IMG/VR virus record: IMGVR_UViG_3300046002_006145
Location: 1 to 50,603 of that record
From: a virus
Taxonomy: Duplodnaviria; Caudoviricetes
Strand: one strand, 5' to 3'
DNA: 50,603 nucleotides
Shown here piece after piece: positions 1-42,072 of this stretch. The notes beneath the pieces were generated by a model. It saw only the letters and a list, made by a program, of their open reading frames with translations, was not told the DNA's origin and searched no databases. Within the stretch, counting starts at the first letter, position 1. Each line of letters begins with the position of its first letter. The position numbers and the translations under genes were made by a program.

Positions 1-127
1 TCATAATAACAAGTGAACCTCATGTTTTTATTAGATTTATAAGAAGCCCCTACGGTAACCGGAATAAAATCACTAAAAAAATAATTTACATCAGCTGTTT
101 TTCCGTTAGTATTTGAAATATAAAAAC
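1..127. repeat. Exact direct terminal repeat (copy 1); circular assembly overlap
   Basis: 1-127 is identical to 50477-50603; 127 is a common maximal assembler k-mer; an ORF reads in frame across the junction. Confidence 0.95.
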
Positions 128-497
128 CAGACGTTGCTTTATTTAAATTATATATATTTTTACCGGGTAATAAATCAGCTTTATTTAACAGTTCAAAATT
201 CTCAACATAATTAGTTAATCTTTCAATCCACTTTGTAGAAGTACCTGGAACATCACCAGCAACAGTCGCAGCATTTGAAGCCCAATCTTTACCAAGATAA
301 TTAACCTGGTCGCCTAATAAGTAGGCACCAGCAGTCCAAGGCGTTATTTTTACACCGCTTCCCTGTGCACCGGTGTTTCCTTGAATACCTTGGTCACCTT
401 TTACACCCTGAGCAATTGGAAATACTATCGATGAAGGTTGCATAGTCGGTAAGACTACTTGTACTGGTTGGCCGAATTCTAATATTATATCGCTCAC
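1..497 (-). CDS. 5' part of a junction-spanning ~474-aa fibre/adhesin protein (short collagen-like GXY run, CBM5/12-like Trp motif)
   Basis: GTG at 497 overlaps the TGA of the upstream ORF (GTGA). Reads MSDIILEFGQP...GVKGDQGIQGNTGAQGSG...WTAGAYLLGDQVNYLGKDWASNAATVAGDVPGTSTKW..., in frame with MRFTCYYD at 23/50499. Confidence 0.8.
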   Translation of the reverse strand, partial: MSDIILEFGQPVQVVLPTMQPSSIVFPIAQGVKGDQGIQGNTGAQGSGVKITPWTAGAYLLGDQVNYLGKDWASNAATVAGDVPGTSTKWIERLTNYVENFELLNKADLLPGKNIYNLNKATSGFYISNTNGKTADVNYFFSDFIPVTVGASYKSNKNMRFTCYY

Positions 498-838
498 GTT
501 CTTGACTCATTAATGGTTAGAAAAAGTGTTCTTGATTTTACTATAGATGAAGTACCAAAATCTACCCTTATTTCAATATCATATTCACCTGCGGCCATCC
601 CTGTGGTGTCGATTGTGAATACCATTTTACTATCACCGTTTAGCGTGATCAGTCCTGCACCTGGGTATGTTCCGGAAGCTGTCTTTACGAAAGCTTTTGC
701 AAACCCTGAAGCCTGTGTCGATTCCTTGTCGTACAAAAGGACCACTATCTGTGTGGCATCTGCAAAGACAAATCCTGACATTACCTGTGCGAACTTCTCG
801 CCTTGAAGGCACTCTATTTTATCGCCTGTTACGTTCAT
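494..838 (-). CDS. Small Ig-like/BppU-like structural adaptor protein
   Basis: 114 aa, beta-rich, ends FTIDTTGMAAGEYDIEIRVDF; translationally coupled to the fibre gene. Confidence 0.5.
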   Translation of the reverse strand: MNVTGDKIECLQGEKFAQVMSGFVFADATQIVVLLYDKESTQASGFAKAFVKTASGTYPGAGLITLNGDSKMVFTIDTTGMAAGEYDIEIRVDFGTSSIVKSRTLFLTINESRT

Positions 839-859
839 AAATTTTGTTTTATTTAGTTT

Positions 860-2320
860 TTAAAAATATCCTGATAAGTCTTTTACGCTTGCGTTTCCTC
901 GCCTTTCTATTGTTCCTGTCAGTGCATCCGGTGCATCGTCGTGCTCATTCCTTCCGACCTTCATATAGCTTGTCAATGACTTGTAAAAAGCTGGCCACAT
1001 CTTATCCCAACCCTTTGGAAAGTAGGTTAGATTCTGAACCTCTGACGATTTAGAAAATATCCTGACATTCTTGTTTTCGCCTTGGTGGAACCAATCTACA
1101 TTCGTGTAGTTGTTACCCATCGCACGCAATTGTTTTTCAACTGCCCTGGCGAATCCACGCCCTCCATTGTTCGACTCGATTATGGCTTCTTTCACTTCAT
1201 TTCGACTTAACAGTTCAGCTGTCTTTGGCTCTGTATATTCCATTGCTTTTTGGGTGTATAGAATATCGGTAACATAATTGGCCGTTTCTGTTTCGATGTA
1301 TGAAATAGCACACAAATAATCTTTTCCCTCGTCAGCTGTATCGATGTAAGCCTTCTTAATCATCGTTTTGCTATACGGTATGATTTCATATTCCCTGAAA
1401 GCTCGTTCGTACATTAGCCCTTGCAACGGTTTCGGGTCCTGTTGATAAAGCGATTCAAAAACGTGCGGTGCTCTTTCCCTTACTGATACCAGTTTTTCAA
1501 TGTTGTGCCTTGCTTCCCATAATGCTTCTCCTTGCTCTCTTGGGTCGTACTCGTTTGGCTCACTCATTTTGATGGCCTGATACGTTACGACAATCCAACC
1601 ACGTGGGTTGGTAATTGGGTCATATACCCCTTGCTGCTCTAAAAGATGCCCTGCAAGGTCAGCTTCGTGCCAACGGGTGAATACTATCAACTGTTGGCTA
1701 TCGTTGTGCAAACGTGTTTCAGCAACGGTGTCGTACCAATCTTCTACTGATTCCCTAACTGTTGGCGACCAGGCTGTTTTGGCATCTTTATAGATGTCGT
1801 CCATAATCAGCATATCAACAGGATCACCGGTCAAAGCACCACCAACACCAACCGTTTTGAAACCTCCACGAAAACCACATATCTCGCACTCGTCAGCGTT
1901 ACGCAACCAAGAGCCTGAAATGGTTGTTACGTTGGAAGCGTTCAGGGTCGTTTCTGGGAATATCTTGTGATATTCTGCTGTGTCGATTACCCTTTGGATT
2001 TCACGGTTAAACTTTCTCGCCTTTGGAGCTGAATACGAAACAACCGCCACTTTTCTGTTTGGGTCTTTACCAAGAACAAAGGCTGGCAGCCTACGTGTGG
2101 AACCTTCACTTTTTCCGTGTTGCGGTGGCATAAATACCATTAGCTTTTTAATGCTTCCGTCCGCAAATTCTGTAAGAACGTTGTAATATCTTTTATGGAA
2201 GTCAGCAGGATCGAATGTCGGCATTGTCGCTTTGGTAAACGTCAAAAGACCGTTCCGGCTTTCCCGAATCAGTCTTTCATCCAATGCTTTTAAATATTCA
2301 ATCTGCTCACTTCGGGTCAT
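860..2320 (-). CDS. terL: Terminase large subunit
   Basis: Walker A MPPQHGKS, Walker B LIMDD, coupling motif FTRWH, nuclease IDTADEGKDY and C-terminal HDDAPDALTG. Confidence 0.95.
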   Translation of the reverse strand: MTRSEQIEYLKALDERLIRESRNGLLTFTKATMPTFDPADFHKRYYNVLTEFADGSIKKLMVFMPPQHGKSEGSTRRLPAFVLGKDPNRKVAVVSYSAPKARKFNREIQRVIDTAEYHKIFPETTLNASNVTTISGSWLRNADECEICGFRGGFKTVGVGGALTGDPVDMLIMDDIYKDAKTAWSPTVRESVEDWYDTVAETRLHNDSQQLIVFTRWHEADLAGHLLEQQGVYDPITNPRGWIVVTYQAIKMSEPNEYDPREQGEALWEARHNIEKLVSVRERAPHVFESLYQQDPKPLQGLMYERAFREYEIIPYSKTMIKKAYIDTADEGKDYLCAISYIETETANYVTDILYTQKAMEYTEPKTAELLSRNEVKEAIIESNNGGRGFARAVEKQLRAMGNNYTNVDWFHQGENKNVRIFSKSSEVQNLTYFPKGWDKMWPAFYKSLTSYMKVGRNEHDDAPDALTGTIERRGNASVKDLSGYF

Positions 2321-2808
2321 TTTTCATTTTTCTTTTCCAGCTCTTTAATTTTGGATTCCAGTTCTTCGTCAGTTAGCTTCTCAAATAAGTCCTTTCCGTC
2401 CTTGCCTGTAAGCTCCGTATTCTGTCTGTTCTTCCAATTCTGTGGATCCTTATTCGTTTGGAAGTGGATAATAGCCCCAAGGTTTGGTGAAATAACCTTT
2501 TTAGTAATCGTTTGCTCCTTTATCTTTGGCTGTCCTGCCCCATTGTCCACCGTAACCGTTTTCTTTTCCTCGTATTCGTAACCTTTGATTATCTTGACAA
2601 GTGACCTTTCGCACTCGATTAAGTTTTTCGCAATGAACTCATCTTTAGCCTTTTGTATAGCAACTGCGAATTCTGCAATATCTGATTGCCATTGATAATA
2701 GCAACGTTCTGATATTCCGACACTTACACATATTTCGGCAATAGTATAACTATCCTTCTTAATCAGGTCGCATATCTTTGTTACTATCCTTTTGTTATAC
2801 TTTGGCAT
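2317..2808 (-). CDS. terS: Terminase small subunit
   Basis: N-terminal HTH (TIAEICVSVGISERCYYQW), AIIHFQTNKDPQNWK, ELTGKDGKDL; overlaps the terL start. Confidence 0.85.
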   Translation of the reverse strand: MPKYNKRIVTKICDLIKKDSYTIAEICVSVGISERCYYQWQSDIAEFAVAIQKAKDEFIAKNLIECERSLVKIIKGYEYEEKKTVTVDNGAGQPKIKEQTITKKVISPNLGAIIHFQTNKDPQNWKNRQNTELTGKDGKDLFEKLTDEELESKIKELEKKNEK

Positions 2809-2809
2809 A

Positions 2810-3679
2810 TTATTTAACTTTTTTGAGTTCTATTCCATAATTATTAATGGAATTAACTATTTGAACACCCTTTTTTTTTCTCAGTTTATTAAATCTAAAA
2901 TGGCTATAATCAACATGATGATGCGCTCTTCCAAACTTCCAAGACAAACGAGCATACTGTGGGTATTCGTGAACTAACATTTTAGACTTTGGAAGCGTTC
3001 CTTCTTTCGAATAAAAATCAGTATTGTTTCCTCCTTTAACAGTTTGTGTCATAGCTTTGAATTGAAGGAATGCATTAAACTGAACTGTACACCAACCTGC
3101 ATTCAACATATCAATTGAAATAATAGTGTCCTCATTGTACCTTCCACGCCAACGAAACGGAACATCATTTCGAATCAGGTTACAAGAATAGATCCGAGTA
3201 TTCATTACGAATGGTGGATGCTTTTCTTTCCTTGTGACAAACATTTCATAATTTGGACCAGCCATTGCGACATTTTCATATCTGTTGCAAAAATCTTCCA
3301 TGATTAAGAAGAAAACGGGATCCTTCACTTCGTAATAATTGTTTTTATTGTATCGGCTAAACCTGAAAATATTATCATCCATTACCCAGTGCCATTCATA
3401 GCCTTTTAGGATTGAAAGTTCCCAAGCAAAATTCCGTGCAGCTCCTGGTCCTTTGCTTTTAGTATTTCCAAGATCATCCAATGTTTGGTATTTGTCCTGA
3501 TACGTTTTATCCAATACGATTAAATGATCCTTCCCTATTGAATTCCGGTACAAATCAAATTCCTGCTCTTCGACTATTACCCAGTAATTTGTGACCTTCA
3601 TTCTTTCCAATGCTTTTACGGTAATGTTACTACTGTAACGACCTTTACTTGGAATGTGAATTGGGTACTTGTTTTCCAT
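2810..3679 (-). CDS. GT-A fold glycosyltransferase, TAGT/GREB1-like
   Basis: YPIHIPSKGR, GPGAARNFAW, WVMDDNI (DxD-like), RIYSCNLIRND, WRGRYNEDT, GGN motifs. Confidence 0.75.
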   Translation of the reverse strand: MENKYPIHIPSKGRYSSNITVKALERMKVTNYWVIVEEQEFDLYRNSIGKDHLIVLDKTYQDKYQTLDDLGNTKSKGPGAARNFAWELSILKGYEWHWVMDDNIFRFSRYNKNNYYEVKDPVFFLIMEDFCNRYENVAMAGPNYEMFVTRKEKHPPFVMNTRIYSCNLIRNDVPFRWRGRYNEDTIISIDMLNAGWCTVQFNAFLQFKAMTQTVKGGNNTDFYSKEGTLPKSKMLVHEYPQYARLSWKFGRAHHHVDYSHFRFNKLRKKKGVQIVNSINNYGIELKKVK

Positions 3680-3682
3680 TTT

Positions 3683-4315
3683 TCAGCCCTTTTCAGCTTC
3701 GTAAACGTGATCAGTTTGTGATCCTGCTTTTTCTTCTGGAAACCAAATTGACTTTGTTTTTTCAGAAAGTTTTTGATCAATCAGTTTCCCGAAATTGATA
3801 TAGTCTTCAATTGATTTAAAATGAATAATCAAGTCTTTTACTCCTGATTTATCTTCACCTTCATATTCTGGCATTCCATTCCATTCGTCTTCTGGATTGT
3901 TTTCTCCAACTGATTTCACGCCCCAATCTTCGGGCTTTATTTCCCATTGGGCTGAAAGTTCCTGTACGGCTTGCTGATCCCAATCAAGGTTTACGTGAGC
4001 CACGGCATTGTCAGCTAAAGCAAGTTCACGACCCATTTTTGAGTCCAAATCAACATCGGTACGCTTTACCACTACCAACTGATTGCCGGTTGTTTCAACG
4101 ATAATGCAATCTTCAAGCCCAAGACTTGCAGCTGTTTCTGTAACACCGTTACCCCCGATAATACGGTTATTTTTGTCCACCAAAATAGAACGACCAAGCC
4201 CCAGAGTAGAAATAGACTTTTCGAGCAAGTGCATACCGTATTGGTTGTGCTTGTTCAAATTCTTATCGTCCTGTATCAGTGACGATATTTTCTTTTCTTG
4301 TACTTTGCTGCTCAT
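3683..4315 (-). CDS. ParB/Srx-like N-terminal domain fused to a C-terminal 'EWxGMPE...SIWFP' domain
   Basis: SILVDKNNRIIGGNG and ELALADN ParB-N motifs; C-terminal EWNGMPEYEGED...IHFKSIEDY...TKSIWFP; directly upstream of the glycosyltransferase. Confidence 0.7.
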   Translation of the reverse strand: MSSKVQEKKISSLIQDDKNLNKHNQYGMHLLEKSISTLGLGRSILVDKNNRIIGGNGVTETAASLGLEDCIIVETTGNQLVVVKRTDVDLDSKMGRELALADNAVAHVNLDWDQQAVQELSAQWEIKPEDWGVKSVGENNPEDEWNGMPEYEGEDKSGVKDLIIHFKSIEDYINFGKLIDQKLSEKTKSIWFPEEKAGSQTDHVYEAEKG

Positions 4316-4629
4316 AACATTCTACGTTTTTGAACTTCCATTTTTTCAAAGAATAAGCTAAGTTTTTGCCTAACTGAAGGCTGTTTTTGTTTTATGAATA
4401 CCGTTCTATTTCCATCAAGCCAGACTGGTGGTTGTGTCACTCCGGAATGAATTGAAAGCCAAATGTTGCCAAAGAATAAAATTGAGATCCTTTCCCTTAG
4501 TGAAGGCCTCCAAAGTGAAATACACTCACGGCCATTGGTGAACACTTTCAGGTCGCCACATTCGGAATCAGTCAGCGCATTTGGTTTGGCCAGTGTCTTA
4601 TTTGATTCCTTAAAGTCTTTTGGTGTCAT
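4312..4629 (-). CDS. Hypothetical phage protein, first gene of the packaging operon
   Basis: 105-aa ORF whose stop overlaps the next start; TATTTTTG box upstream (4649-4656). Confidence 0.7.
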   Translation of the reverse strand: MTPKDFKESNKTLAKPNALTDSECGDLKVFTNGRECISLWRPSLRERISILFFGNIWLSIHSGVTQPPVWLDGNRTVFIKQKQPSVRQKLSLFFEKMEVQKRRML

Positions 4630-4664
4630 AGTTGCGATTATGTTTCACCAAAAATAAAGAAATC

Positions 4665-4679
4665 GTACCTGAGTGATAC
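4665..4679. promoter_or_regulatory. Palindromic operator copy (GTACCTGAGTGATAC, degenerate) upstream of the packaging-operon -7 box
   Basis: Matches the GTATCAC-N-GTGATAC family; 8 nt from a minus-strand TATTTTTG. Confidence 0.6.
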
Positions 4680-4710
4680 GATTTCGATATTAAAACTTAT
4701 GATTAAGTTA

Positions 4711-6039
4711 TTATGCTACTGCTTTTTCTTTACTTCTTGGCCTTGTTCTAATTACTATTTTCCTGATTTCATTTAAGTTTTCGCTAACCAAATCAATGAT
4801 TTTTTTATGATGTTTTGTGGCTTCGTTTTTAATTCCTCGTGCCTGTTCTATTTTCATATCCGGAATCAAAACTTCGATTGTTTCAATTCGCTTTCCGTTG
4901 ACCTTTGCTGAAAGGATCAATGATTTTTCCTTGAGATAGTATTCATTCGTGTAAACACAATGCCCTAACTCGTCGCCTTCTTGCTTGAATTCATCCACAC
5001 TTTGTAAAACATTTATTGTGATATTCCCTTTTTTGAATTCCAAATTGAAAAACTTTTGGTTACGTTCAATATATTGCACAATTGCCTTTTCCAAATTTTG
5101 CTGGCGTTTCTCGATTTTTAAACGTTCCTGTTCTAATGCTTCAAGCCTTAGTATTTCACGTTTCTTTTTCATCAAGCGGTCGTGTTCTGCTTTTAAGTTT
5201 TTAGGGCACACATATTTTGCGTTTCGCATATCCTTCTTGAAATAGGAAAGTAGGTCCAGGTAATCAAAATACATTGAAGCATCGCTGACTTTGTATTTGT
5301 TACGAAAACATATTTTAATCGAGTTCCAATAGGTATTGATTTTATAATTATTGTTCAAGCACTGGCCTAAAATAGAATATTGCTTTTCTTTTAATATGGT
5401 TTCTGCCTTTGGTGATTTAGGCAATAACTTAATAGCATCTAAAAAACTGATTCCGTTTAGTTTGGAATCAATACCATATTTTGAATATTCCTTTTTTATC
5501 TCTGAATCAGGGTGATATAGCCGAGCGTAAATATCATATTTATCACCACCCCATCGCCTTGTTTCCTGTCTTATTTCCATTGAACCTGACCAGGAATCCA
5601 TACACCAACTTGAATTATGACTTAATCCATACATTGTTGTTTTCCCGTCTGTCCTTATCCAGTATTGCAGTATTTCGTGAAGATTATATCTTGCCGGATT
5701 GCCTTTTTTGTAATGGCCTATAATCTCAAAATTTCTAATAACCTGAAATTCGTCCACTATTTCGGTTATGGCAAAATAATTGGTTTGTTTATCTGTGGTG
5801 TTCCTGACTTCTTTTACTTGAAGCTTTGTGCTGCAATGAGGGCAAACGGCTTTTTTTCTGCTCACTAATTCTGGCGCAAATGTTTCGCCACAATCCAAGC
5901 ATAACACCCTGTTTTTAGTTGCATAGGCTCTATGTTCCAGGCAATATTTATACGCCCAATCCGATTGACTTTTGCTTATTTTAGGCAGTTGAGAACTTAA
6001 CTCAACTACCTGTCTTTGAAGTTTGGTTGTCGCTCTCAT
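4711..6039 (-). CDS. PcfJ-like protein
   Basis: N-terminal CLDCG/CPHC Zn motifs; C-terminal LKAEHD, EGDELGHCV, IETIEV, QARG; follows a PcfK-like gene. Confidence 0.85.
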   Translation of the reverse strand: MRATTKLQRQVVELSSQLPKISKSQSDWAYKYCLEHRAYATKNRVLCLDCGETFAPELVSRKKAVCPHCSTKLQVKEVRNTTDKQTNYFAITEIVDEFQVIRNFEIIGHYKKGNPARYNLHEILQYWIRTDGKTTMYGLSHNSSWCMDSWSGSMEIRQETRRWGGDKYDIYARLYHPDSEIKKEYSKYGIDSKLNGISFLDAIKLLPKSPKAETILKEKQYSILGQCLNNNYKINTYWNSIKICFRNKYKVSDASMYFDYLDLLSYFKKDMRNAKYVCPKNLKAEHDRLMKKKREILRLEALEQERLKIEKRQQNLEKAIVQYIERNQKFFNLEFKKGNITINVLQSVDEFKQEGDELGHCVYTNEYYLKEKSLILSAKVNGKRIETIEVLIPDMKIEQARGIKNEATKHHKKIIDLVSENLNEIRKIVIRTRPRSKEKAVA

Positions 6040-6042
6040 AAA

Positions 6043-6453
6043 TTAGAAAAGTGAAGCTTGAATACCTACTTTTTGTTCCTCTTTTTTTGGACTGACTTTC
6101 TTTTTGATTCGTTCCTTTTCATCTGCTATAACCTTATCCATTGCTTGCTGTTTAGCTTGCTGAATTTCCTCTTCGGTAAGTTCTGCTTTGTGGTTTACAA
6201 CGTATTGCATTCCGGCAGGCGTTTTTCCTACTATGATATCGTCCTCGTCGTAATAGTGAACTGCCATACCAAATATTTCATCGTCAGTGAATCCATTGCA
6301 TTTAGAAGCCTGAACAGTGGTAAGAATGTAGTTTACACAATCATCGATATTTTTCTTTTCCTTTTTTAGTGTTTCAGCGAAAATAGTATCGTTGGAAGCC
6401 AACACTTCGAGGTGCTGGCTGATTACTTTTTTAAAGTTTTCTGTTGATTTCAT
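6043..6453 (-). CDS. PcfK-like protein (family that includes AcrIIA9-like proteins)
   Basis: KNIDDCVNYIL...GFTDDEIFGMAVHYYDEDDI, ends QASLF. Confidence 0.85.
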   Translation of the reverse strand: MKSTENFKKVISQHLEVLASNDTIFAETLKKEKKNIDDCVNYILTTVQASKCNGFTDDEIFGMAVHYYDEDDIIVGKTPAGMQYVVNHKAELTEEEIQQAKQQAMDKVIADEKERIKKKVSPKKEEQKVGIQASLF

Positions 6454-6468
6454 TTGTTGCGGTTTTAA
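6454..6468 (-). promoter_or_regulatory. TTAAAACCGCAACAA motif directly before ATG
   Basis: Identical copies at 7130-7144, 16084-16098 and 39191-39205; partial copy at 14076-14083. Confidence 0.65.
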
Positions 6469-6477
6469 GATTATTTT

Positions 6478-7128
6478 TTAAGACCAAAGCCTTTTAGCTA
6501 TTTCAAGATTTTTTTCAGCTTCATTAACAGCTTTTTTTGCATAAGTCAAAGAATATGAATGTGAACGTTCGTATTTTCCTGACTTTAACCCTTCGTGTTT
6601 TTCTTTAGCCTCTTCAACTTTGTATTCATAAAATTCAACGCTTTCCGGCATTGATAAATTAATGTCGTTTGTTTTTCTGTTCCAATACTCGGCTTTGCTT
6701 TCGTGTTGTTCAGCTTTTTTACCTTCCTCGATACATTTTCCCATTCTATTGTGATTTCTCTCAATAAGTGCACGGTGTCTTTTTTCTGAATGGTGGCCAA
6801 TTTTTATTGGTTCACCCAAAGAAAGAAAGTCTTTCCCCTCTTGTGATGCTTTCCAGTATTCAGTAGATTTGTTTTCTGAACCTTGCGCCCAGTTAAGGTA
6901 TCTCTCGGCTTTTTTCTTTGCAAACTCTTGAATGTTAAATCCATCGGCTCTAACTATCGAATAATAATAGAAATCGTCCTTTCTTAAAACTAAGTTAAAG
7001 ACGATGCACTCGTGTTCTTTTCCATATTTTGTTTCTAAAATGATGTTTTCACCCTTTTCGTGTCTTTCAGGGCATTTTGCTACGAATACATTTGCGGTGT
7101 ACTTTGCATAAGTGTTTTTTGCTTCCAT
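6478..7128 (-). CDS. DUF3560-domain protein
   Basis: GEPIKIGHHSEKRHRALIER signature. Confidence 0.8.
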   Translation of the reverse strand: MEAKNTYAKYTANVFVAKCPERHEKGENIILETKYGKEHECIVFNLVLRKDDFYYYSIVRADGFNIQEFAKKKAERYLNWAQGSENKSTEYWKASQEGKDFLSLGEPIKIGHHSEKRHRALIERNHNRMGKCIEEGKKAEQHESKAEYWNRKTNDINLSMPESVEFYEYKVEEAKEKHEGLKSGKYERSHSYSLTYAKKAVNEAEKNLEIAKRLWS

Positions 7129-7129
7129 T

Positions 7130-7179
7130 TTGTTGCGGTTTTAATTAAAAAGTATCACTGTGATACGTGGCAAATATAC
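7130..7179 (-). promoter_or_regulatory. Promoter cassette: TATATTTG -7 box, perfect operator GTATCACTGTGATAC (7152-7166), AAAACCGCAAC leader
   Basis: Minus strand reads TATATTTGccacGTATCACAGTGATACtttttaaTTAAAACCGCAACAAaATG. Confidence 0.75.
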
Positions 7180-7226
7180 ACATATATTGTATATAAATGT
7201 ATTAAATCATAAAAAAATTAAGTTTT

Positions 7227-7754
7227 TTACTTTTTATTAAAGAAACTGCCCATTGTCACCGGCCTTACTCGCATCGGGAACCCTGCAAAATTCCAAGCCA
7301 GTAAAGCACCATCCCTACCCTCTTGGTTTGTTCTTCTGGATATTGCCGTAAAAAAAGACAGTTCATCGTGGGTAATTTTGCCATCTGGACCTTTCCACAT
7401 CTTTTTTAGTGGCCTTGTTTCTATAACATCTAAGCCGTAATGCTTTGCCATTTCAATAATCTTTCTGGCAACTTCGTGGTTCCTGCCGGTAGAATTACCC
7501 TTGGCAGTTGCAACACGCCTGTTATCGCCTGAATTAACGTGCCAGTTCGATTTATTTAAGTAACCTGCTTCTACGATAAAGACAACAGATTGGCCTGTTT
7601 CGTCGTGCTGCTTCTTAACGAATTGCATATAGTCAAGTAATTGTGGAAAAGTAAGATTTGATATTTCGAGTTTTTTGGTGGTAGTTTCTAAAAAGGCAAC
7701 GCCCGACTTTTCACAGTCGGGGTCTATGCCAATGATGTTGTTATACTTTTTCAT
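7227..7754 (-). CDS. RuvC-like (RNase H fold) Holliday junction resolvase
   Basis: IIGIDPD N-terminal motif, IVE, C-terminal NQEGRDGALLA. Confidence 0.7.
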   Translation of the reverse strand: MKKYNNIIGIDPDCEKSGVAFLETTTKKLEISNLTFPQLLDYMQFVKKQHDETGQSVVFIVEAGYLNKSNWHVNSGDNRRVATAKGNSTGRNHEVARKIIEMAKHYGLDVIETRPLKKMWKGPDGKITHDELSFFTAISRRTNQEGRDGALLAWNFAGFPMRVRPVTMGSFFNKK

Positions 7755-7756
7755 AA

Positions 7757-8053
7757 TTAGAACGGAAGATCATCTTCGGCAGGAATTTCAGCATTATTTT
7801 CTTCAAGTGGCTTTGGTGCTTGTTGTTCACTTATTTTAAGATTACCAAAATAAACCTTGTCTTCTTTGGTAGCATCCTTAAAGGAAGTCTGCATACTGGC
7901 ATCATTGCCAAACTTGTCCTTTTCGTCATTTATCCAAACATTTAGGTTTAAATAAATCTTACCATTTTCAGCTCTTGAAAAGGCTTTGTTTCCTGATTTT
8001 GCTAATTCTAGCAGTTTTGAGAAGTCTAGGCTTCCGTACATTAATTTGCTCAT
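7757..8053 (-). CDS. Single-stranded DNA-binding protein-like
   Basis: 98 aa ending in the SSB-type acidic tail AEDDLPF; lies in the replication module. Confidence 0.65.
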   Translation of the reverse strand: MSKLMYGSLDFSKLLELAKSGNKAFSRAENGKIYLNLNVWINDEKDKFGNDASMQTSFKDATKEDKVYFGNLKISEQQAPKPLEENNAEIPAEDDLPF

Positions 8054-8064
8054 ATTTTCTGGTT

Positions 8065-8787
8065 TTAATAAATTACTTCTCTTATTGAATTTTTATGGTT
8101 GTAAACTCGCTCAATATTATAGATGTAGTTTTTTACATCGCCTTGTTTGTCCATTATATTGGGAGCAGAACCTATTTTTTGTTTTAATTTTTCGAAGTCA
8201 CATTTGCCTTTTTTAGCTATTGCCTGGACCGCACCAATAAGGTATCTATCACGTGAGAAGGCATATCGTTTGAAAATAGATTCTGTTAACTCTACTAAGA
8301 AAGTAGCTTCGTCAAAAAACTTAACTCTAAAATCACCTGACTGAAAATCGTCTGTAGATTTTTCAGTGTGTTTATTGTACATCAATAAATCAGTCGAAAG
8401 CTTGATGTTGGTGTCGTGAGCTTTCATAAATGATTTTAGAGCTTTATAGTCTTCAATTCCTAAGTTGATATAGCAGTTCAGGAAATCGTTTGCTTTCCAT
8501 TTATCTCCACGGGAGTTCAATTGTGCAATTTGTTTCAAGGAAAGGGTGTTGCAAACTACATAATACACTGGATTATTTGTTTTCTTACTCACTTCAAAAC
8601 GGTGTTGGCCGTCAATGATGTGAAAGAAGCCCTGTTCACTTTCAGATACTACAATTGGGCAATAAGGCAACATATTAAAGCCGTTTGATACATCACTGCA
8701 TATTTTATCTATTTTTGAAACACTTAAAACTCTGTTACCTATGATGTTTTCGAAGCACTCATATTTTTTTGATTGTTGTATTACCAT
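8065..8787 (-). CDS. ParB/Srx-like N-terminal domain protein
   Basis: PIVV...HIIDGQHRF motif; operator copy immediately upstream. Confidence 0.75.
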   Translation of the reverse strand: MVIQQSKKYECFENIIGNRVLSVSKIDKICSDVSNGFNMLPYCPIVVSESEQGFFHIIDGQHRFEVSKKTNNPVYYVVCNTLSLKQIAQLNSRGDKWKANDFLNCYINLGIEDYKALKSFMKAHDTNIKLSTDLLMYNKHTEKSTDDFQSGDFRVKFFDEATFLVELTESIFKRYAFSRDRYLIGAVQAIAKKGKCDFEKLKQKIGSAPNIMDKQGDVKNYIYNIERVYNHKNSIREVIY

Positions 8788-8814
8788 TTTTTTTATTAAT
8801 TCGAATTAAAGAAA

Positions 8815-8829
8815 GTATCACTCTGATAC
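8815..8829. promoter_or_regulatory. Operator copy GTATCACTCTGATAC
   Basis: Overlaps the stop of the 8818 ORF, 27 nt upstream of the ParB-like start. Confidence 0.65.
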
Positions 8830-9444
8830 GCATCTGGTTAAAACTGAATCGATTTTCGAAACAATATCACGAAAGCCTGAATTATATTTTATTTCGTTCC
8901 TGTATGTTTTTATTCCGTGCATTACGGTGGTATGATCACGATTGACAATTTGTCCAATCTCATAAAGTGACATTTTTTCAGTTTCTCGGCAATAATTAAT
9001 AATAATCATCCTTGCGAAAAACGTTTCCTTGGTTCTGCTTTTTGTAATTAAATCGTCAAACTTCAAGCCCATAACGTGGGTGATTGCATCTTTAAGCTTT
9101 TCAATCTTGCCAATGTTCTTGCAGGCGTTTGATTCAAACATTATCGGGATTCCGTATTCCTCGGCAATTTTAATTTCGATACGTGACTGTTTCGAATCAA
9201 TCCAGTTGTCCAGGACAAATATTGTATTCGAATTTAAAAGCATCTGGATGTCTTTGATAAGGTGTTGTTTCTTGGAGTGTTTTTCTGTTAGTCCATTCTT
9301 TATCGGATTAATCGGAACCATACCGATGCTGATAAGAAAGGATTCTGCGATGTCAAATTTTTGCTGTACGTGTTCGATTGGTATTCCACTGGTTTTGCCA
9401 GAGATATACGTTTTATGCTGTTTAGGGCTGTTTTCTGCGATCAT
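8818..9444 (-). CDS. DUF4406-like domain fused to a DnaA C-terminal-like HTH
   Basis: TYISGKTSG...WIDSKQSRIEIKIAE (DUF4406-like); SLYEIGQIVNRDHTTVMHG (DnaA domain IV-like). Confidence 0.7.
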   Translation of the reverse strand: MIAENSPKQHKTYISGKTSGIPIEHVQQKFDIAESFLISIGMVPINPIKNGLTEKHSKKQHLIKDIQMLLNSNTIFVLDNWIDSKQSRIEIKIAEEYGIPIMFESNACKNIGKIEKLKDAITHVMGLKFDDLITKSRTKETFFARMIIINYCRETEKMSLYEIGQIVNRDHTTVMHGIKTYRNEIKYNSGFRDIVSKIDSVLTRCVSE

Positions 9445-10129
9445 TTCCTTTTAAAATATAATAGTTACACATTTCGTTTAAGCGGCTCGATACACGGTCT
9501 TCATAGCGTTTTATAAAGGTTTCGTGGTTAATTGGTAAATTTGATGATATAAGCGTTAAGATATTTGTTTGGTCGCCTCGGTATTCAAGGATCTGCTGCA
9601 GGACGTTGACACGGTTTCCCATATACATACTTTCCAACGGCTCAGCTCCGAGGTCCTGAATAGCCATAACAGGCATTTTTTTAAACTTTTCAATTATTCC
9701 GTTAGTGGAATACTCGTCACAAACTGTGTCTGTTCTGTGACACGGCCAGTGCAGAACTCTTTTTTTTCCTCCGATACTAATGCAAACATTATCGATAAGG
9801 CAGTAAGCTGACATAATTTCCAAAGCCCAAGACTTACCAGAACCGGTATTTCCGGCAATGTATATTCCTGCGTCAAGTCTACCTGGAATAACTTGTGAAG
9901 TGGAAGGATCAATACATTTGAAATCTGGGTCAGCGTGTACCCAACGAATCAGGTTTTCAAAGACAAATCGATTTTCATTATCGATTGTGAATTTTTGGTT
10001 TCGTGCTTTTCCGATTGCTTCGACAACTTTCAGTGCAATTTCCATCTTGTATGGCAGATAAGTAATTCTGGTTACTTTCTGAAAAAGGCCTTGGTCGGCT
10101 ATTTTTTTAAGAATTTCTGCTATTTCCAT
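9422..10129 (-). CDS. DnaC/IstB-like P-loop ATPase (helicase loader)
   Basis: GNTGSGKS Walker A, IQDLGAE, ISSNL, DRVSSRLNEM. Confidence 0.8.
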   Translation of the reverse strand: MEIAEILKKIADQGLFQKVTRITYLPYKMEIALKVVEAIGKARNQKFTIDNENRFVFENLIRWVHADPDFKCIDPSTSQVIPGRLDAGIYIAGNTGSGKSWALEIMSAYCLIDNVCISIGGKKRVLHWPCHRTDTVCDEYSTNGIIEKFKKMPVMAIQDLGAEPLESMYMGNRVNVLQQILEYRGDQTNILTLISSNLPINHETFIKRYEDRVSSRLNEMCNYYILKGNDRRKQP

Positions 10130-10833
10130 ACTTCTGAATCTTTATATTTCAAATCTTCCTTTTTATAACTTACACTTTTTCTGAAACTTTTTTCATTTTT
10201 TGCCCAAGTTTCCAAACGTCTTTCCAAATCCCAAGTCTTTTCTAATTCCTGCTTGAATTTTGTTCCTGATTTATTTGGTTCTGCCCAGTATCGATAAAAA
10301 TCATTTAGAAAATCTTTGCCATAAACATCAAGATAAGGTTTGAGTGTGTCAGAAAACGAAAGTTTTCTGAAATCATACTTTTCTTTTATAATCTTACTCT
10401 TATCTTCTATTATTTTATCTTCTATTATATTATCTTCTCTTAATGCTATCGTTTCGCTATGCGGTTCGCTATCGCTTTTTAATGGGGTGGCTATAGCCAG
10501 GCTATCTTTTTGCCATCTTTTCAATGCTCCTTTGCGTCCGTTATCTGAATTTATGTTTGATTTTTCGGTAGCATTTGAGTATTGTCGAACAAGGAAATCA
10601 ATGACAATTTTACCGGAATCAATCTTTATTATTTTTTCAGAAATAAGCTCGTCAAAACACTGCTCGTTATTTAACCTTTTCTTTGCTTGCTCTAGTGTTA
10701 AATCACAATCTTTCTGCCAGTATAGTGCCATTAAATTAACATATACACCTTGTGATTCAATTGAGCAAAACATAATATCTCCTGCCAGCCATTCCGCTGG
10801 TTCAAATTGAAAATATGGTAGTCGTTTGCTCAT
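10120..10833 (-). CDS. Replication initiator (DUF1376-like N-terminus)
   Basis: LPYFQFEPAEWL...GVYVNLMALYW; NGRKGALKRW; FYRYWAE...WDLERRLETW; internal iteron-like repeats. Confidence 0.75.
   Translation of the reverse strand: MSKRLPYFQFEPAEWLAGDIMFCSIESQGVYVNLMALYWQKDCDLTLEQAKKRLNNEQCFDELISEKIIKIDSGKIVIDFLVRQYSNATEKSNINSDNGRKGALKRWQKDSLAIATPLKSDSEPHSETIALREDNIIEDKIIEDKSKIIKEKYDFRKLSFSDTLKPYLDVYGKDFLNDFYRYWAEPNKSGTKFKQELEKTWDLERRLETWAKNEKSFRKSVSYKKEDLKYKDSEVWK
10400..10506. repeat. Iteron-like repeats, putative replication origin
   Basis: 15-bp TTATCTTCTATTATW about 2.7 times (10400-10439), plus GCTAT at 10445, 10456, 10468, 10490 and 10501. Confidence 0.55.
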
Positions 10834-10839
10834 AGTATT

Positions 10840-11004
10840 CTATAATTTTTCAATTAAAGAAAGTTCACCAAGCTTCCAATTATGCTTTGCTAGGCGAGCA
10901 TATAATGTTGGCTTTGTAATACCAAGCTTTGCTGACAAATCATCGTGGGAATAGCTTAATAATAGCCTGTTCGCTTTTACTGTTGCTTCTAATTTTGTGA
11001 TCAT
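10840..11004 (-). CDS. 54-aa helix-turn-helix protein (not in the ORF track)
   Basis: MITKLEATVKANRLLLSYSHDDLSAKLGITKPTLYARLAKHNWKLGELSLIEKL; HTH pattern LSAKLGITKPTLY. Confidence 0.7.
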   Translation of the reverse strand: MITKLEATVKANRLLLSYSHDDLSAKLGITKPTLYARLAKHNWKLGELSLIEKL

Positions 11005-11072
11005 AATTTTTTCTTTTTAATTTTTTTACTAAATCGGGTTAAAGAATAGCGGTCATAAGAAACCGCTTTTCC

Positions 11073-11094
11073 GTATTACTGTGGTACAAATATA
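11073..11094 (-). promoter_or_regulatory. Promoter -7 box TATATTTG overlapping operator GTATTACTGTGGTAC (11073-11087)
   Basis: Minus strand reads TATATTTGTACCACAGTAATAC, upstream of the small HTH and replication genes. Confidence 0.7.
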
Positions 11095-11183
11095 AAACAT
11101 ATTTCAGTCATTATCTGTGAAATAAATAAATATTTATTTTTTAATTTAACACCAGCCCGAAGGCCAGTGTTTTTAGGTTATTC

Positions 11184-11927
11184 TTACTGCTCAATTATCG
11201 CAATATCAGGGCATATTTCCCTTATCTTTTCTAGTTGGCTGTCCACTACCTTATCCCTAATATCTTCCATTGTCTGGTTTGCTGCAGGCGAAAGAAGTAT
11301 GAATGACACGTCACGGCCATCTACTCTGGCGAAGGTTTCGATCTCTAGCGTTTCGGCTGGCATACCTTTGAAAATTGGTATTTTAAGCGTGAAAGCTGAC
11401 GGAAGGTTACTGTTTACTGTTTGGGCAAACTTATCGGTTCTGTCACCGTTTTCCTTTGCCGAACGTTCGATGCTATTGTTTACCGTGGCTGTGAAGTTCA
11501 TTAGTTCGGTAACCAGTTTCATATTCTCTGATTTGTCAGAAAAGAAAGCACGGTTCATTTTGAAAAACATTCCCAACTCAGTAGGTGTCCAAATCTTTCC
11601 AGTATTGATTCCGAATTCAAGGAACTTCGGATGCTCGGCCAGTGTGCCTTTAATGTTTCCAAAAAGATACTCGTCATTTTCGTTGTAAACGAGTTTGATG
11701 CTTATATCTTCACGGTTAACGAGAATGTGGCAACGCTTTTGGTTGATCTGGTCTTCCTGGTCCTTTCTCTTTGAAAGGAATTCAAGTACTGAACCGATAA
11801 CACCTCGCACATCCAACTTGATAGGTGCTTTAATTGGAAGCTCATTCACTGACTCTACTTCCCTTACAATAATTTCGGCTTTTGACATTCCAGGGGCAAG
11901 ATTTACTTGCAGTTTTTCGTTTTGCAT
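11184..11927 (-). CDS. Conserved phage protein (possibly DUF2303/YfdQ-like)
   Basis: 247 aa; C-terminal LPSAFTLKIPIFKG resembles DUF2303 proteins. Confidence 0.5.
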   Translation of the reverse strand: MQNEKLQVNLAPGMSKAEIIVREVESVNELPIKAPIKLDVRGVIGSVLEFLSKRKDQEDQINQKRCHILVNREDISIKLVYNENDEYLFGNIKGTLAEHPKFLEFGINTGKIWTPTELGMFFKMNRAFFSDKSENMKLVTELMNFTATVNNSIERSAKENGDRTDKFAQTVNSNLPSAFTLKIPIFKGMPAETLEIETFARVDGRDVSFILLSPAANQTMEDIRDKVVDSQLEKIREICPDIAIIEQ

Positions 11928-11955
11928 AATATTAATTTTTTAAAGTTTTTTTAAA

Positions 11956-12387
11956 TTAGTTTCCTGTTCCTGTTTCACGTACTACTTGAAAGATACTTCC
12001 TTGAAGCTCGTCGGCATAAGCAGGACGGCTTTCGATTAACTCACCGTCTTCGTTGTAGAATCCAACTTCACGTGTTTGAGGGTCAATAAACTTGAAACAA
12101 ACCTCGGTAACGTGTTCTGATTTATTTTTCAGTCCAGTAAGGATTGAAGATCTGTCTTCAATCAATGGTTTCATTCTCAATTTGAATCCTTCCATTGCGA
12201 ACTTTTTTTCGATTTCAATATCGTTGATTTCGATGGCTGTTTCTGAAAGTTCTTCTTTCATCTTTAGCAACTGGTCTGGTTTGAATCTCTTCATATAACC
12301 TTTTTGCTCAACTGAATCACAATTGTCTTTTAAAAATTCTACTCTTCTTTTCGGATCCTGAATATCCTTTCCTAATTCTCTTTGCAT
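11956..12387 (-). CDS. Hypothetical phage protein
   Basis: 143-aa ORF within the operon. Confidence 0.7.
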   Translation of the reverse strand: MQRELGKDIQDPKRRVEFLKDNCDSVEQKGYMKRFKPDQLLKMKEELSETAIEINDIEIEKKFAMEGFKLRMKPLIEDRSSILTGLKNKSEHVTEVCFKFIDPQTREVGFYNEDGELIESRPAYADELQGSIFQVVRETGTGN

Positions 12388-23789: not shown

Positions 23790-23880
23790 GTTTTTGAATA
23801 AATAAATCATAAGTTTGTAAGCAATTTTATACCATTTTAAAATTTAACATATTAAAATACATTTATATTTAATATATGTA

Positions 23881-23902
23881 TATATTTGTATCACTGTAAT
23901 AC
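23881..23902 (+). promoter_or_regulatory. Moron promoter TATATTTG overlapping operator GTATCACTGTAATAC (23888-23902)
   Basis: The same 22-nt string occurs at 40536-40557. Confidence 0.75.
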
Positions 23903-34245: not shown

Positions 34246-34992
34246 TTAGACTCCGGCTTGTGTTACTGGAACAATTGCAGAAATTCCGTCTGCTGTAACA
34301 GTCACATTTGCAGTTCTTGCCTCAGAGTTGGTGTTCGCTGTAACTTTAACAGTCACGACTTTCAATGCTCTTGTCACGGTAATCCAGTCAAGGTCACTTG
34401 GTGCAGCAGCATAAGTCACGTTACCAGTTGAAGTGGCAGTGATTGTTTTACCTACTGCATCAGCAGCAGAAGTGAACGACAATGTTGTCGGTGTCACAAC
34501 CAATTGAGTTGCACCGTCATAAGCCAAGATTGACTTACCAGCAGTTACAGCCATTGGCGTGATTGTAAAATCTACAAGGAAGATTCCTTTTGCGCTGAAA
34601 TCGGCATTGATAACCGCTTCAATATCGGCATTTGGGATGTCGATATAGTGACCTTGCTGTGTTTTTACACGAACAGCTTTGTTGGCCACAACTTCGTCAC
34701 CGTTGAAACCCCAGATTCCTGCTGTATTTGTTCCACCAACATAGTCGGCTAACATTTGAGCATCTGGATCCATAATAGAAAAAGACAGTACAGGTACTTT
34801 CTTTTGTTTTTTACGGACTTCCGGTGCTGATTTGCCCTCTTCGAAGTGTTCGGTAACTTCTGCGGTGGCTTGCGCTAACTTACAAGTGTCTTTGTAAGTT
34901 TTACCGATTTTAGCCAAAGATCCAGGCATTGTTCCTACTGTGGAAGCGATGCCAACTTCGACTTGCGATAATCCTAAAGTGATTAATGCCAT
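34246..34992 (-). CDS. Major tail protein with C-terminal BACON-like domain
   Basis: Position; C-terminus DWITVT...VTVKVTANTNSEARTANVTVTADG...VTQAG. Confidence 0.8.
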   Translation of the reverse strand: MALITLGLSQVEVGIASTVGTMPGSLAKIGKTYKDTCKLAQATAEVTEHFEEGKSAPEVRKKQKKVPVLSFSIMDPDAQMLADYVGGTNTAGIWGFNGDEVVANKAVRVKTQQGHYIDIPNADIEAVINADFSAKGIFLVDFTITPMAVTAGKSILAYDGATQLVVTPTTLSFTSAADAVGKTITATSTGNVTYAAAPSDLDWITVTRALKVVTVKVTANTNSEARTANVTVTADGISAIVPVTQAGV

Positions 34993-39043: not shown

Positions 39044-39153
39044 TATATTGATTTATGTGTACTTATGAAATAGTTATGCAATAGTGTTTAAGGCTAATTT
39101 GGCAAATAATGAAATTTTAACACTTTATTTTACATTTGTATTAAGTATATATA

Positions 39154-39205
39154 TATATTTGCATATGTATTAGAGTAATACATACATCATTTAAAACCGC
39201 AACAA
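39154..39205 (+). promoter_or_regulatory. Promoter cassette: TATATTTG, operator GTATTAGAGTAATAC (39167-39181), TTAAAACCGCAACAA leader
   Basis: Same architecture as the 7130-7179 and 16084-16126 cassettes. Confidence 0.7.
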
Positions 39206-40491: not shown

Positions 40492-40535
40492 CAAAACTTT
40501 AACATAATTATAGATATATACTGAATACATATGTA

Positions 40536-40557
40536 TATATTTGTATCACTGTAATAC
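40536..40557 (+). promoter_or_regulatory. Internal promoter TATATTTG overlapping operator GTATCACTGTAATAC (40543-40557)
   Basis: Identical to 23881-23902. Confidence 0.75.
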
Positions 40558-42036: not shown

Positions 42037-42072
42037 AAAAAAAGGCTGGAATTTAACCCAGCCTTTTTTTTT
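42035..42072. terminator. Bidirectional intrinsic terminator
   Basis: A9-GGCTGG-loop-CCAGCC-T9. Confidence 0.85.

Follow-up and report, generated by a model that had tools for sequence, protein, structure and literature searches.

The window analysed here is the whole IMG/VR virus record IMGVR_UViG_3300046002_006145 (Duplodnaviria, Caudoviricetes), which is 50,603 nt long, has direct terminal repeats (127 nt at the record ends), and is rated 100% complete by CheckV. Its packaging operon, coded on the minus strand, carries a two-gene cassette for a ParB-like protein and a glycosyltransferase (GT) directly upstream of the terminase genes, and this cassette is the subject of the present report. 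The ParB-like protein, designated ParB-X (3683..4315, 210 aa), was recognized by ParB-like families of PHROG and by profile comparison with the PDB. It consists of a ParB-N domain of the ParB-CTPase fold (residues 1 to about 127; 3935..4315) and an acidic domain designated X (residues 138-205; 3701..3904) with the pattern EW-GMPEY...IIHF...F-KLI-Q...KTKSIWFP...Y, delimited by alignment, fusions, and profile matches. The GT (2810..3679, 289 aa) has a GT-A catalytic domain of the Pfam family TAGT (PF20691) at residues 5-217 (3029..3667), assigned by hidden Markov model (HMM), conservation, and a structure model, and a basic C-terminal extension at residues 218-289 (2813..3028; isoelectric point, pI, of 10.1), defined by alignment, model, and charge. 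It is followed by terS (2317..2808; phrog_309, 1.6e-21) and terL (860..2320; Terminase_6N and phrog_38, 8e-88). The first open reading frame (ORF) of the operon codes for 105 aa (4312..4629) and has a weak match to phrog_34105 (1e-4); its homologue was found in 1 of 80 related loci, and it therefore lies outside the conserved cassette. The junctions are very tight: the 105-aa ORF and ParB-X overlap in ATGA, ParB-X and GT are separated as TGA, 3 nt, ATG, GT and terS as TAA, 1 nt, ATG, and terS and terL overlap by 4 nt. The original prediction for this locus, of a ParB-N/'GMPE...SIWFP' gene tightly coupled to a GT-A gene upstream of terS-terL, was confirmed in coordinates, junctions, and family matches. 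No megablast match to positions 1-12000 was found among cultured phages.

The GT matched Pfam TAGT with an E-value of 8.8e-44 and 150.3 bits (cut-off 27.5), and its residues 5-217 were aligned to profile positions 1-205 of 205, that is, to the whole domain. It also matched phrog_842 (1.1e-43). The study that defined the TAGT family is said to be that of Iyer et al. from 2013. Residues R82, D101-D102-N103, and E183-D184-T185 show no variation among the 36 aligned homologues. Assigned by eye, these residues match the motifs R...DDD...EDY/F, which were reported from the active site of GT-A DNA glycosyltransferases of phages (bioRxiv 10.1101/2023.12.21.572611), with a deviation in the third residue of each acidic triplet, N for D and T for Y/F. 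Degenerate catalytic residues, a doubt raised together with the original prediction, were not seen, and judged by these positions the catalytic core is intact. The AlphaFold2 (AF2) model of the GT (pLDDT 91.3, pTM 0.90) has a GT-A fold without a membrane segment. In Foldseek, GT-A enzymes were the matches in the PDB (best E-value 8.7e-6, TM score up to 0.49), and VIA-align gave Z of 14.3 against GT2-like chains with a gradual fall to about 10, while the best matches in BFVD were viral models labelled TAGT (TM 0.87-0.88). A profile search against PDB sequences revealed no relative (a single match with E-value 0.8), and neither cassette protein was matched in an NCBIfam scan of 19 window ORFs. 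The predicted fold is thus of GT-A/GT2-like type with no close solved relative. In the C-terminal extension R251, H253, H254, and Y258 are invariant, and this basic part is a candidate surface for binding of a polyanion or a partner. The pI of the window GT is 9.4, and the protein is basic in all 36 homologues (8.98-9.84). At the same 36 loci, mean column identity is 60% for the GT and 31% for its partner, a twofold difference in conservation that universal substrates would predict. The GT family is large, with at least 8000 protein clusters at E<=0.001 and at least 599 IMG/VR stretches with a confirmed GT (599 of 600 checked), and its identity reaches a plateau at about 60%.

ParB-X has no match of its own to Pfam ParB_N. 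It matched phrog_620 (ParB-like) at 5.3e-16, and a profile of the protein and 35 relatives matched the solved N-domains of Noc, Spo0J, and ParB with E-values from 3e-13 to 1e-10 at positions 1-105; the PDB matches end at about residue 105-134. Neither a helix-turn-helix (HTH) nor a ParB_C nor an N6_N4_Mtase family was found in the partner by Pfam. Its ParB-N part also matched positions 32-145 of phrog_498 (a 633-position profile; 2.2e-15), a family of ParB-N-DNA methyltransferase fusions, the genes for which typically stand at the start of a late or packaging operon. The arginine of the N-x-R motif, present in 28 of 36 relatives, is N21 in the window, and the arginine of the G-H-x-R motif (Box II), present in 29 of 36, is V58. 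ParB-fold proteins bind various nucleoside triphosphates (NTPs), and replacement of the Box II arginine abolishes NTP binding in some of them (PMC12704722). Because both nucleotide-binding arginines are lost, the ParB-N domain of the window is probably a scaffold rather than a switch driven by NTP. Such a role is plausible because the R16A and R56A mutants of ParB176, a protein required by the thymine dioxygenase 5mYOX176 on double-stranded DNA, still activate the dioxygenase (O'Toole et al. 2026, PMC13229309). In our own comparison, the mutated residues N14, R16, S29, and R56 of ParB176 align with N19, position 21, S34, and position 58 of the window protein, and the activity of the NTP-site mutants matches the natural loss of both arginines. 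The whole partner is acidic, with pI of 4.8 (family median 4.83), and its AF2 model has a pLDDT of 81.7. A second, different ParB-like gene (8065-8787, minus strand; phrog_12305, 1.5e-19; 'DGQHR' motif) lies 4 kb upstream of the cassette and occurs also in some related loci (L059:8150-8908).

The 'GMPE...SIWFP' motif (residues W145-P193), which the original prediction took as part of ParB-N, is the most conserved part of the ParB-X family and belongs to a different unit. The ParB-N half of the family is variable, and the core at about 143-205 is conserved (EW-GMPEF...VHF...F-KLI-Q-IT-KTK-IW-P...Y), with Thr187 in the K-T-K stretch nearly invariant. X (pI 4.5) has no counterpart in Pfam, and the viral clusters to which it belongs are unnamed. 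Its core is modelled by AF2, within the partner, with confidence of 92-97 as one helix between extended segments, a shape as if a partner sheet were needed. In Aeromonas phage Aeh1 (399 aa) and Vibrio phage 1.076.O (389 aa), X is placed at the N-terminus of the TAGT protein and there is no ParB-N. Among 120 GT homologues longer than 506 aa, classified with HMMs from in-house alignments, X is directly N-terminal to GT in 57 (X-GT in 26, X-X-GT in 18 and in 8 more with a split GT match, ParBN-X-GT in two, tandem or other arrangements in three), and the rest are GT-GT tandems (28) and GTs with other regions (35). An earlier word-index search of longer proteins had found no X; the fusions were then revealed by profile search and our own HMMs. 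The difference between the split X and GT of the window and the fused forms is a stop codon plus 3 nt. An exhaustive search with an X-only profile yielded 3313 representatives, 2452 of them at <=1e-10, and the top 149 comprise 107 ParBN-X proteins, 31 with X alone, seven X-X, two X-X-GT, one ParBN-X-X, and one protein of 2774 aa that was not reproduced by our own X HMM. The last one (P0258, metagenomic) has 16 partial X-profile matches, none with our own X HMM at 1e-3, and in Pfam a weak RIOX1 winged-helix match alone.

Other fusions are varied. X-GT is fused to an exonuclease and DNA polymerase A in two proteins, and GT without X is fused to a SNF2 helicase and to a DUF2800/PD-(D/E)XK nuclease. 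X also follows the N-terminal half of a C5 DNA methylase, and it precedes an FkbM methyltransferase and a GT32-like domain. Further GT fusions are with FkbM or class-I methyltransferases, a GNAT domain, or a second TAGT domain, and some versions of the cassette seem to build a methylated or longer glycan. On the strength of these alignments and fusions, X is best described as a separate adaptor domain dedicated to the TAGT clade, and it would dock on the GT, since many phages fuse X directly to the N-terminus of the enzyme.

The neighbourhood was counted in the best 80 IMG/VR loci, in 78 of which the GT was found as an ORF. A ParB-X homologue stands beside the GT in 66 of the 80 loci according to BLAST, mostly as its immediate upstream neighbour in the same orientation; exceptions are L004 and L028 with one intervening ORF and L048, where ParB-X and GT are about 1.6 kb apart. 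All window genes except the cassette pair have homologues in four or fewer of the 80 loci. A labelled terL was found within three ORFs downstream of the cassette in 43 of 78 loci (just 44 have an ORF of at least 350 aa there), and these terL genes represent at least four unrelated families, with Terminase_6N (16), Terminase_3 (14), TerL_ATPase/nuclease (nine), and lambda-type GpA (four). No third gene travels with the pair, the biggest upstream neighbour cluster being a 116-aa protein in seven loci. Occasional enzymes among 139 neighbour representatives are N6/N4, Dam, and MT-A70 methylases, class-I and FkbM S-adenosylmethionine (SAM) methyltransferases, GT9- and GT4-like enzymes, and HNH nucleases, and in L073, L067, and L080 a GT9-like protein, a class-I SAM methyltransferase, and an MptE-like protein precede ParB-X. 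When compared with PHROGs, 24 unannotated neighbours were replication proteins, a second ParB, or gave nothing. The ParB-X/GT pair is a very common, horizontally mobile two-gene cassette among unrelated phages.

In cultured phages, 32 tblastn records (E<=1e-5) carry the GT, from Aeromonas (12), Vibrio (six), Escherichia (five), Tenacibaculum (three), Lactobacillus (three), and other hosts, and the host range of the cassette covers several phyla (Bacteroidota-like, Proteobacteria, Lactobacillus). In Vibrio phage 1.076.O the GT gene lies between portal and head-morphogenesis genes. A distant version (24-25% identity) with ParB_N, TAGT, terS, and terL is present in E. coli phage vB_EcoS-683R6 and Lactobacillus phage phi jlb1; in BLAST of the window partner against the ParB proteins of these two phages, ParB-N was aligned and X was not detected, so a different module may stand at the C-terminus in the distant cassettes. 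Of 5426 complete E. coli genomes, 1580 contain DNA of the E. coli version (889 at >=80% coverage), with the annotation ynaK. This cousin, a ynaK ParB/Srx gene plus a TAGT gene in prophages, is thus present in about 29% of complete E. coli genomes, and a literature search on ynaK gave nothing relevant among the papers listed. The E. coli phage with the distant cassette also has an annotated ADP-ribosyltransferase after the portal. Plasmid-borne spread of the GT was rejected, as a homologue was found in 1 of 72,556 plasmids.

From its gene content the phage of the window is a temperate siphovirus, with an integrase, repressor-like genes, a RecT/SbcC-type recombination module, and a DnaC-like loader, and with an SPP1-type portal, tape measure, and BACON-domain tail protein among the structural genes; no DNA polymerase of its own was found in the window in Pfam and PHROG scans of ORFs. 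According to the original prediction, this complete genome has no recognizable TET/JBP, C5 methyltransferase, or thymidylate-synthase-like gene, and the claim stood. In hmmscan against Pfam (E<=0.01), which covered 61 of 63 ORFs of at least 45 aa (those of 45 and 56 aa were left out), there was no Tet_JBP, no other 2-oxoglutarate-Fe(II) family, no C5 DNA_methylase, no Thymidylat_synt, and no alpha-GT, beta-GT, or any GT family besides TAGT. Six-frame searches of the record were likewise negative for PF12851, PF00303, and PF00145. The TET/JBP association that gives the TAGT family its name was absent from the window ORFs, from the record, and from 50 related records, as PF12851 was found in 0 of 50 of them, including 0 of 13 complete (>=90%) ones, with no positive control giving a signal in the PF12851 genome searches of the window and the related records. 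The ThyA-like PF00303 was found in 0 of 51 records and 0 of 14 complete genomes (controls positive in 10 of 14), and the C5-methyltransferase PF00145 in four of 51 records, all four among the 14 complete genomes, and not in the window. The pair occurs repeatedly without recognizable TET/JBP and ThyA genes, and none of the three families was met among the 139 neighbour representatives. The HxD/E...H spacing, a crude necessary-condition test for a dioxygenase, is present in 16 of 63 ORFs, all otherwise assigned: terL, PcfJ/K, DUF3560, RuvC-like, second ParB-like, DnaC-like, metallo-beta-lactamase hydrolase, SbcC-like, a methyltransferase-like 802-aa ORF, integrase, lysozyme, tail proteins, and an 86-aa ORF. 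HxD/E is wholly absent from the unassigned non-structural ORFs g6, g17, g18, g31, g35, g54, and g63. A hidden dioxygenase was rejected as far as Pfam and this crude motif test reach.

Several published systems resemble the cassette in part. Clusters of 5mYOX (TET/JBP), C5 methyltransferase, and GT-A (PMC8256090; bioRxiv 10.1101/2023.12.21.572611) share with it the broad GT-A family with an R...DD(D)...ED(Y/F)-type core, the frequent adjacency of ParB-like genes and terminases, and sugar-tailoring accessories (second GT, methyltransferases), which here occur in relatives of the cassette. They differ in that the window has no 5mYOX, C5 methyltransferase, or thymidylate-synthase-like (ThyS) gene, and in that the GT here needs or travels with X, a domain that the accessible text on those clusters does not mention. 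ParB genes near such clusters were noted by Burke et al. 2021 (PMC8256090), who credit Iyer et al. 2013 with the idea that ParB directs the modification during packaging. The 5mYOX176/ParB176 pair (PMC13229309) is similar in having a ParB-N-fold protein without a recognizable DNA-binding HTH beside a DNA-modifying enzyme (in the window, a putative one); other 5mYOX-associated ParBs also have no HTH, and ParB176 is specific to its neighbouring enzyme. It is different in that the enzyme is a dioxygenase and not a glycosyltransferase, and in that the C-terminal part of the window partner is X and not a recognizable ParB dimerization domain. In fusions of ParB-N with DNA methyltransferases (phrog_498; ParB-CTPase-N6_N4_Mtase, PMC12704722) the same ParB-N type serves a DNA-modifying enzyme, but there it is covalently joined and canonical bases are methylated, whereas a separate adaptor domain and sugar transfer are predicted here.

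The beta-glucosyl-HMC-alpha-glucosyltransferase of phages T2 and T6 (PMC13216743, PMC13390438) shares PF20691 and the GT-A fold, but it is only remote kin: T-even phages account for 0 of the 32 tblastn records, and a T-even-type model (Klebsiella phage PKO111) ranks 20th, with TM of 0.58-0.60 and 16% identity to the GT. The acceptor of the T-even enzyme, glucosyl-5-hydroxymethylcytosine (5hmC), cannot exist in this phage, since neither a dCMP hydroxymethylase nor an alpha- or beta-GT was found among its genes. PHROG and RefSeq nevertheless give the name beta-glucosyl-HMC-alpha-glucosyltransferase to Aeromonas and Lactobacillus homologues, and this transferred name is misleading. In RefSeq it is also borne by the X-TAGT fusion of Aeh1 (L082, 3698-4897). 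The Aeh1 genome has one canonical thymidylate-synthase match (1.2e-93) and a sub-threshold 127-aa fragment, and Tet_JBP was not found in it, with no positive control giving a signal; there, too, the transferred name is probably wrong. GREB1, an animal protein with a TAGT-type domain outside of any TET context, transfers O-linked N-acetylglucosamine (GlcNAc) to estrogen receptor alpha (PMC7968844). It is a large eukaryotic protein with a transcription factor as its target and without a ParB or X partner, and it shows only that the TAGT family is not confined to DNA acceptors.

The original prediction also called the system possibly undescribed, and this applies in part only. Solitary TAGTs with a 'yet-to-be defined function' were reported in 288 of 753 phage genomes (PMC13216743), about 65% of contigs with GT-A or GT-B are without 5mYOX or ThyS (bioRxiv 10.1101/2023.12.21.572611), and a ParB partner of a phage thymine dioxygenase has been established experimentally (PMC13229309). 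The main text of the 2025 survey of ParB-CTPase fusions does not contain the words 'glycosyltransferase', 'terminase', or 'TAGT'. Literature searches, which did not cover the bioRxiv supplements and Dataset S10 of PMC13229309, where such contigs may be listed, yielded no account of X or of ParB-X and TAGT as one unit. New are the fusion evidence that X belongs with the GT, the range of fusion partners of X and of GT, the complementary charges of the two proteins, and the degeneration of the NTP site. The cassette is real, ordinary-looking, and functionally unexplained.

The explanation preferred here, tentatively and with slightly more doubt than confidence, is that ParB-X docks the basic GT and directs it late in infection to phage DNA, where the acceptor is something other than a phage-made 5hmC or 5-hydroxymethyluracil (5hmU). 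The cassette would be a self-contained, horizontally mobile late-operon unit, in which the acidic X of the partner would dock the basic GT and ParB-N would, by analogy with ParB176, hold or gate the enzyme on replicated phage DNA while the packaging genes are expressed. The GT would then move a sugar from a common nucleotide-sugar onto the phage DNA. The acceptor would be a feature that all DNA has, for instance a DNA end or a nitrogen, exocyclic or in the ring, of a normal base. That a phage-made 5-hydroxymethyl-pyrimidine is not the acceptor, as the original prediction proposed, is suggested because the cassette phages lack TET/5mYOX and ThyS-like genes and mostly lack C5 methyltransferases, and it is the most economical reading of the absence of these partners. 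DNA is proposed as the acceptor because the cassette phages, whose structural and packaging proteins are unrelated, have no other macromolecule in common, because the ParB-N type is shared with DNA-methyltransferase fusions, because X or GT is fused to polymerase A, helicase, nuclease, and half of a C5 methylase, because the GT is basic, and because a published ParB enables a base-modifying enzyme on double-stranded DNA (PMC13229309). The bolder claim that the cassette glycosylates canonical DNA directly, on a base nitrogen or at the genome ends and with no hydroxymethyl 'handle', is doubtful.

Several points weigh against DNA as the acceptor. To our knowledge, a sugar attached to an unmodified base of DNA would be without precedent. 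X and the entire partner protein are acidic, the partner has no recognizable DNA-binding domain, and the window ParB-N is without the Box II arginine needed for NTP binding elsewhere. The closest solved folds act on polymers, proteins, and small molecules, and none of them on DNA. The metagenomic fusion proteins may partly be artefacts of gene calling, and the near confinement of the GT to phages, with virtual absence from plasmids, also fits a virion-linked protein target. A very divergent oxidase may exist despite the PF12851 negatives, because no control gave a signal and because 83-94.6% of contigs found by phage-5mYOX HMM profiles have the PF12851 annotation, leaving thousands with none (PMC13229309). 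The TAGT-domain protein GREB1 glycosylates a protein (PMC7968844).

The alternative that survives best, although it is unlikely, is that the GT glycosylates a protein, either its own partner (e.g., at Thr187 of X) or a packaging or virion protein, with ParB-X as substrate or regulator. GTs and their protein acceptors are often encoded adjacently, and X offers a nearly invariant Thr in a domain that, being acidic, is an unlikely DNA binder. The gene is in the head/packaging module here and in the portal-to-head-morphogenesis interval in Vibrio phage 1.076.O, its near absence from plasmids suggests a virion-tied function, ColGalT1, SunS, and GalNAc-Ts are among the structural neighbours, and the family includes the protein O-GlcNAc transferase GREB1 (PMC7968844). 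However, the terminase, portal, and capsid families are unrelated across the cassette phages, so that the sole common protein is ParB-X, and an acceptor domain in cis with the enzyme, polymerase A, or half a C5 methylase is hard to rationalize; nor do the uniformly basic GT and the ParB-N type common to DNA methyltransferase fusions speak for a protein.

A target that is neither DNA nor protein appears very unlikely. It could be an envelope polymer, modified in a TarP-like way for superinfection exclusion or receptor masking, or a nucleotide or other small molecule, e.g., for inactivation of a defence signal, with ParB-N as the nucleotide-binding module. TarP, a prophage GlcNAc transferase for wall teichoic acid, and other GT-A enzymes acting on polymers or small molecules are among the structural neighbours, ParB-fold proteins bind various NTPs (PMC12704722), and the FkbM and class-I methyltransferases, GT32-like domain, and GT-GT tandems suggest that a glycan is built, on a carrier that they do not specify. 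On the other side, the GT model has no membrane segment, the gene belongs to the late packaging operon and not to the lysogeny module, the window ParB-N is without its nucleotide-binding arginines, GT is fused to DNA polymerase A, helicase, and nuclease, and the hosts of the cassette have very different envelopes. The least probable alternative is a conventional enzyme that places sugar on a hydroxymethyl-pyrimidine or on a base-borne sugar, with the acceptor made by a missed, very divergent phage 5mYOX or by the host: characterized phage TAGT/GT-A DNA enzymes are all reported to act on 5hmC or glucosyl-5hmC (PMC13390438, PMC13216743, bioRxiv 10.1101/2023.12.21.572611), and the missing PF12851 control and the unannotated 5mYOX contigs (PMC13229309) leave it some room, but the negative scans, motif test, and controlled ThyA-like search given above and the lack of a third co-travelling gene stand against it, a temperate phage without its own DNA polymerase is a poor fit to a pre-replicative pathway, and hosts of several phyla make a shared host hydroxylase unlikely.

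Other features of the window were recorded. A trio of PcfJ-like (3.4e-33), PcfK-like (1.3e-39), and DUF3560 (1.6e-38) genes lies directly upstream of the packaging operon (4711-7128, minus strand); these families are otherwise known from conjugative elements. A terminator-like hairpin with an 11-bp stem and a T run (4659..4685, minus strand, read as 4685..4659; one found vs. a mean of 0.4 in shuffles) ends the PcfJ/PcfK block about 30 nt ahead of the first ORF of the packaging operon. The 802-aa ORF (18103-20511, plus strand) beside the integrase and repressor-like genes has DCASGTG and NPPY-type methyltransferase motifs, with weak database matches (N6_Mtase 0.0078, MADS2 methyltransferase 3.7e-4, no PHROG family), and may be a lysogeny-expressed orphan or defence-associated adenine methyltransferase. 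In the replication module, a DUF4406 domain similar to nucleoside 2-deoxyribosyltransferase (NDT) is fused to a DnaA C-terminal DNA-binding domain (8818-9444, minus strand), and such a DNA-tethered NDT-like domain is unusual. An AT-rich intergenic element of 64 nt is present four times (11089-11152, 23839-23902, 39112-39175, and 40494-40557; 61-78% identity to the reference copy) and ends in a TATATATTTG-like motif. This motif resembles TAnnTTTG, the Bacteroidota -7 promoter consensus, and the four elements are probably phage promoters; together with the BACON domain (34246-34992) they point to a Bacteroidota host. An 863-aa head-morphogenesis protein (42071-44662, minus strand) matches phrog_16625 'Bxa ADP-ribosyl transferase' (1.2e-87) at residues 202-598. 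A tail-fibre-like ORF spans the record ends (3-497, minus strand, joined via the end repeat to 49549-50499, minus strand) and has collagen-like G-x-x repeats and the segment 'MRFTCYYD...VSGGNSASG' twice.

TAGT-type enzymes have so far been understood only as the final step after synthesis of 5hmC or 5hmU. The cassette is a very large, highly conserved TAGT branch with its own adaptor and with no base-priming enzyme, and the name beta-glucosyl-HMC-alpha-glucosyltransferase is being spread by RefSeq and PHROG to proteins that cannot have that activity. The E. coli cousin makes the question of the target directly testable in a laboratory host. With a protein as the target, the cassette would amount to a widespread, packaging-linked system of glycosylation in phages that has gone unrecognized. 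With DNA as the target, it would represent a new acceptor chemistry, with bearing on how phages evade restriction, type IV, and glycosylase defences and on nanopore and SMRT reading of phage DNA, and it could possibly serve as a DNA-labelling tool. If the sugar is indeed placed on canonical DNA, thousands of phages would carry an undescribed chemistry of DNA modification.

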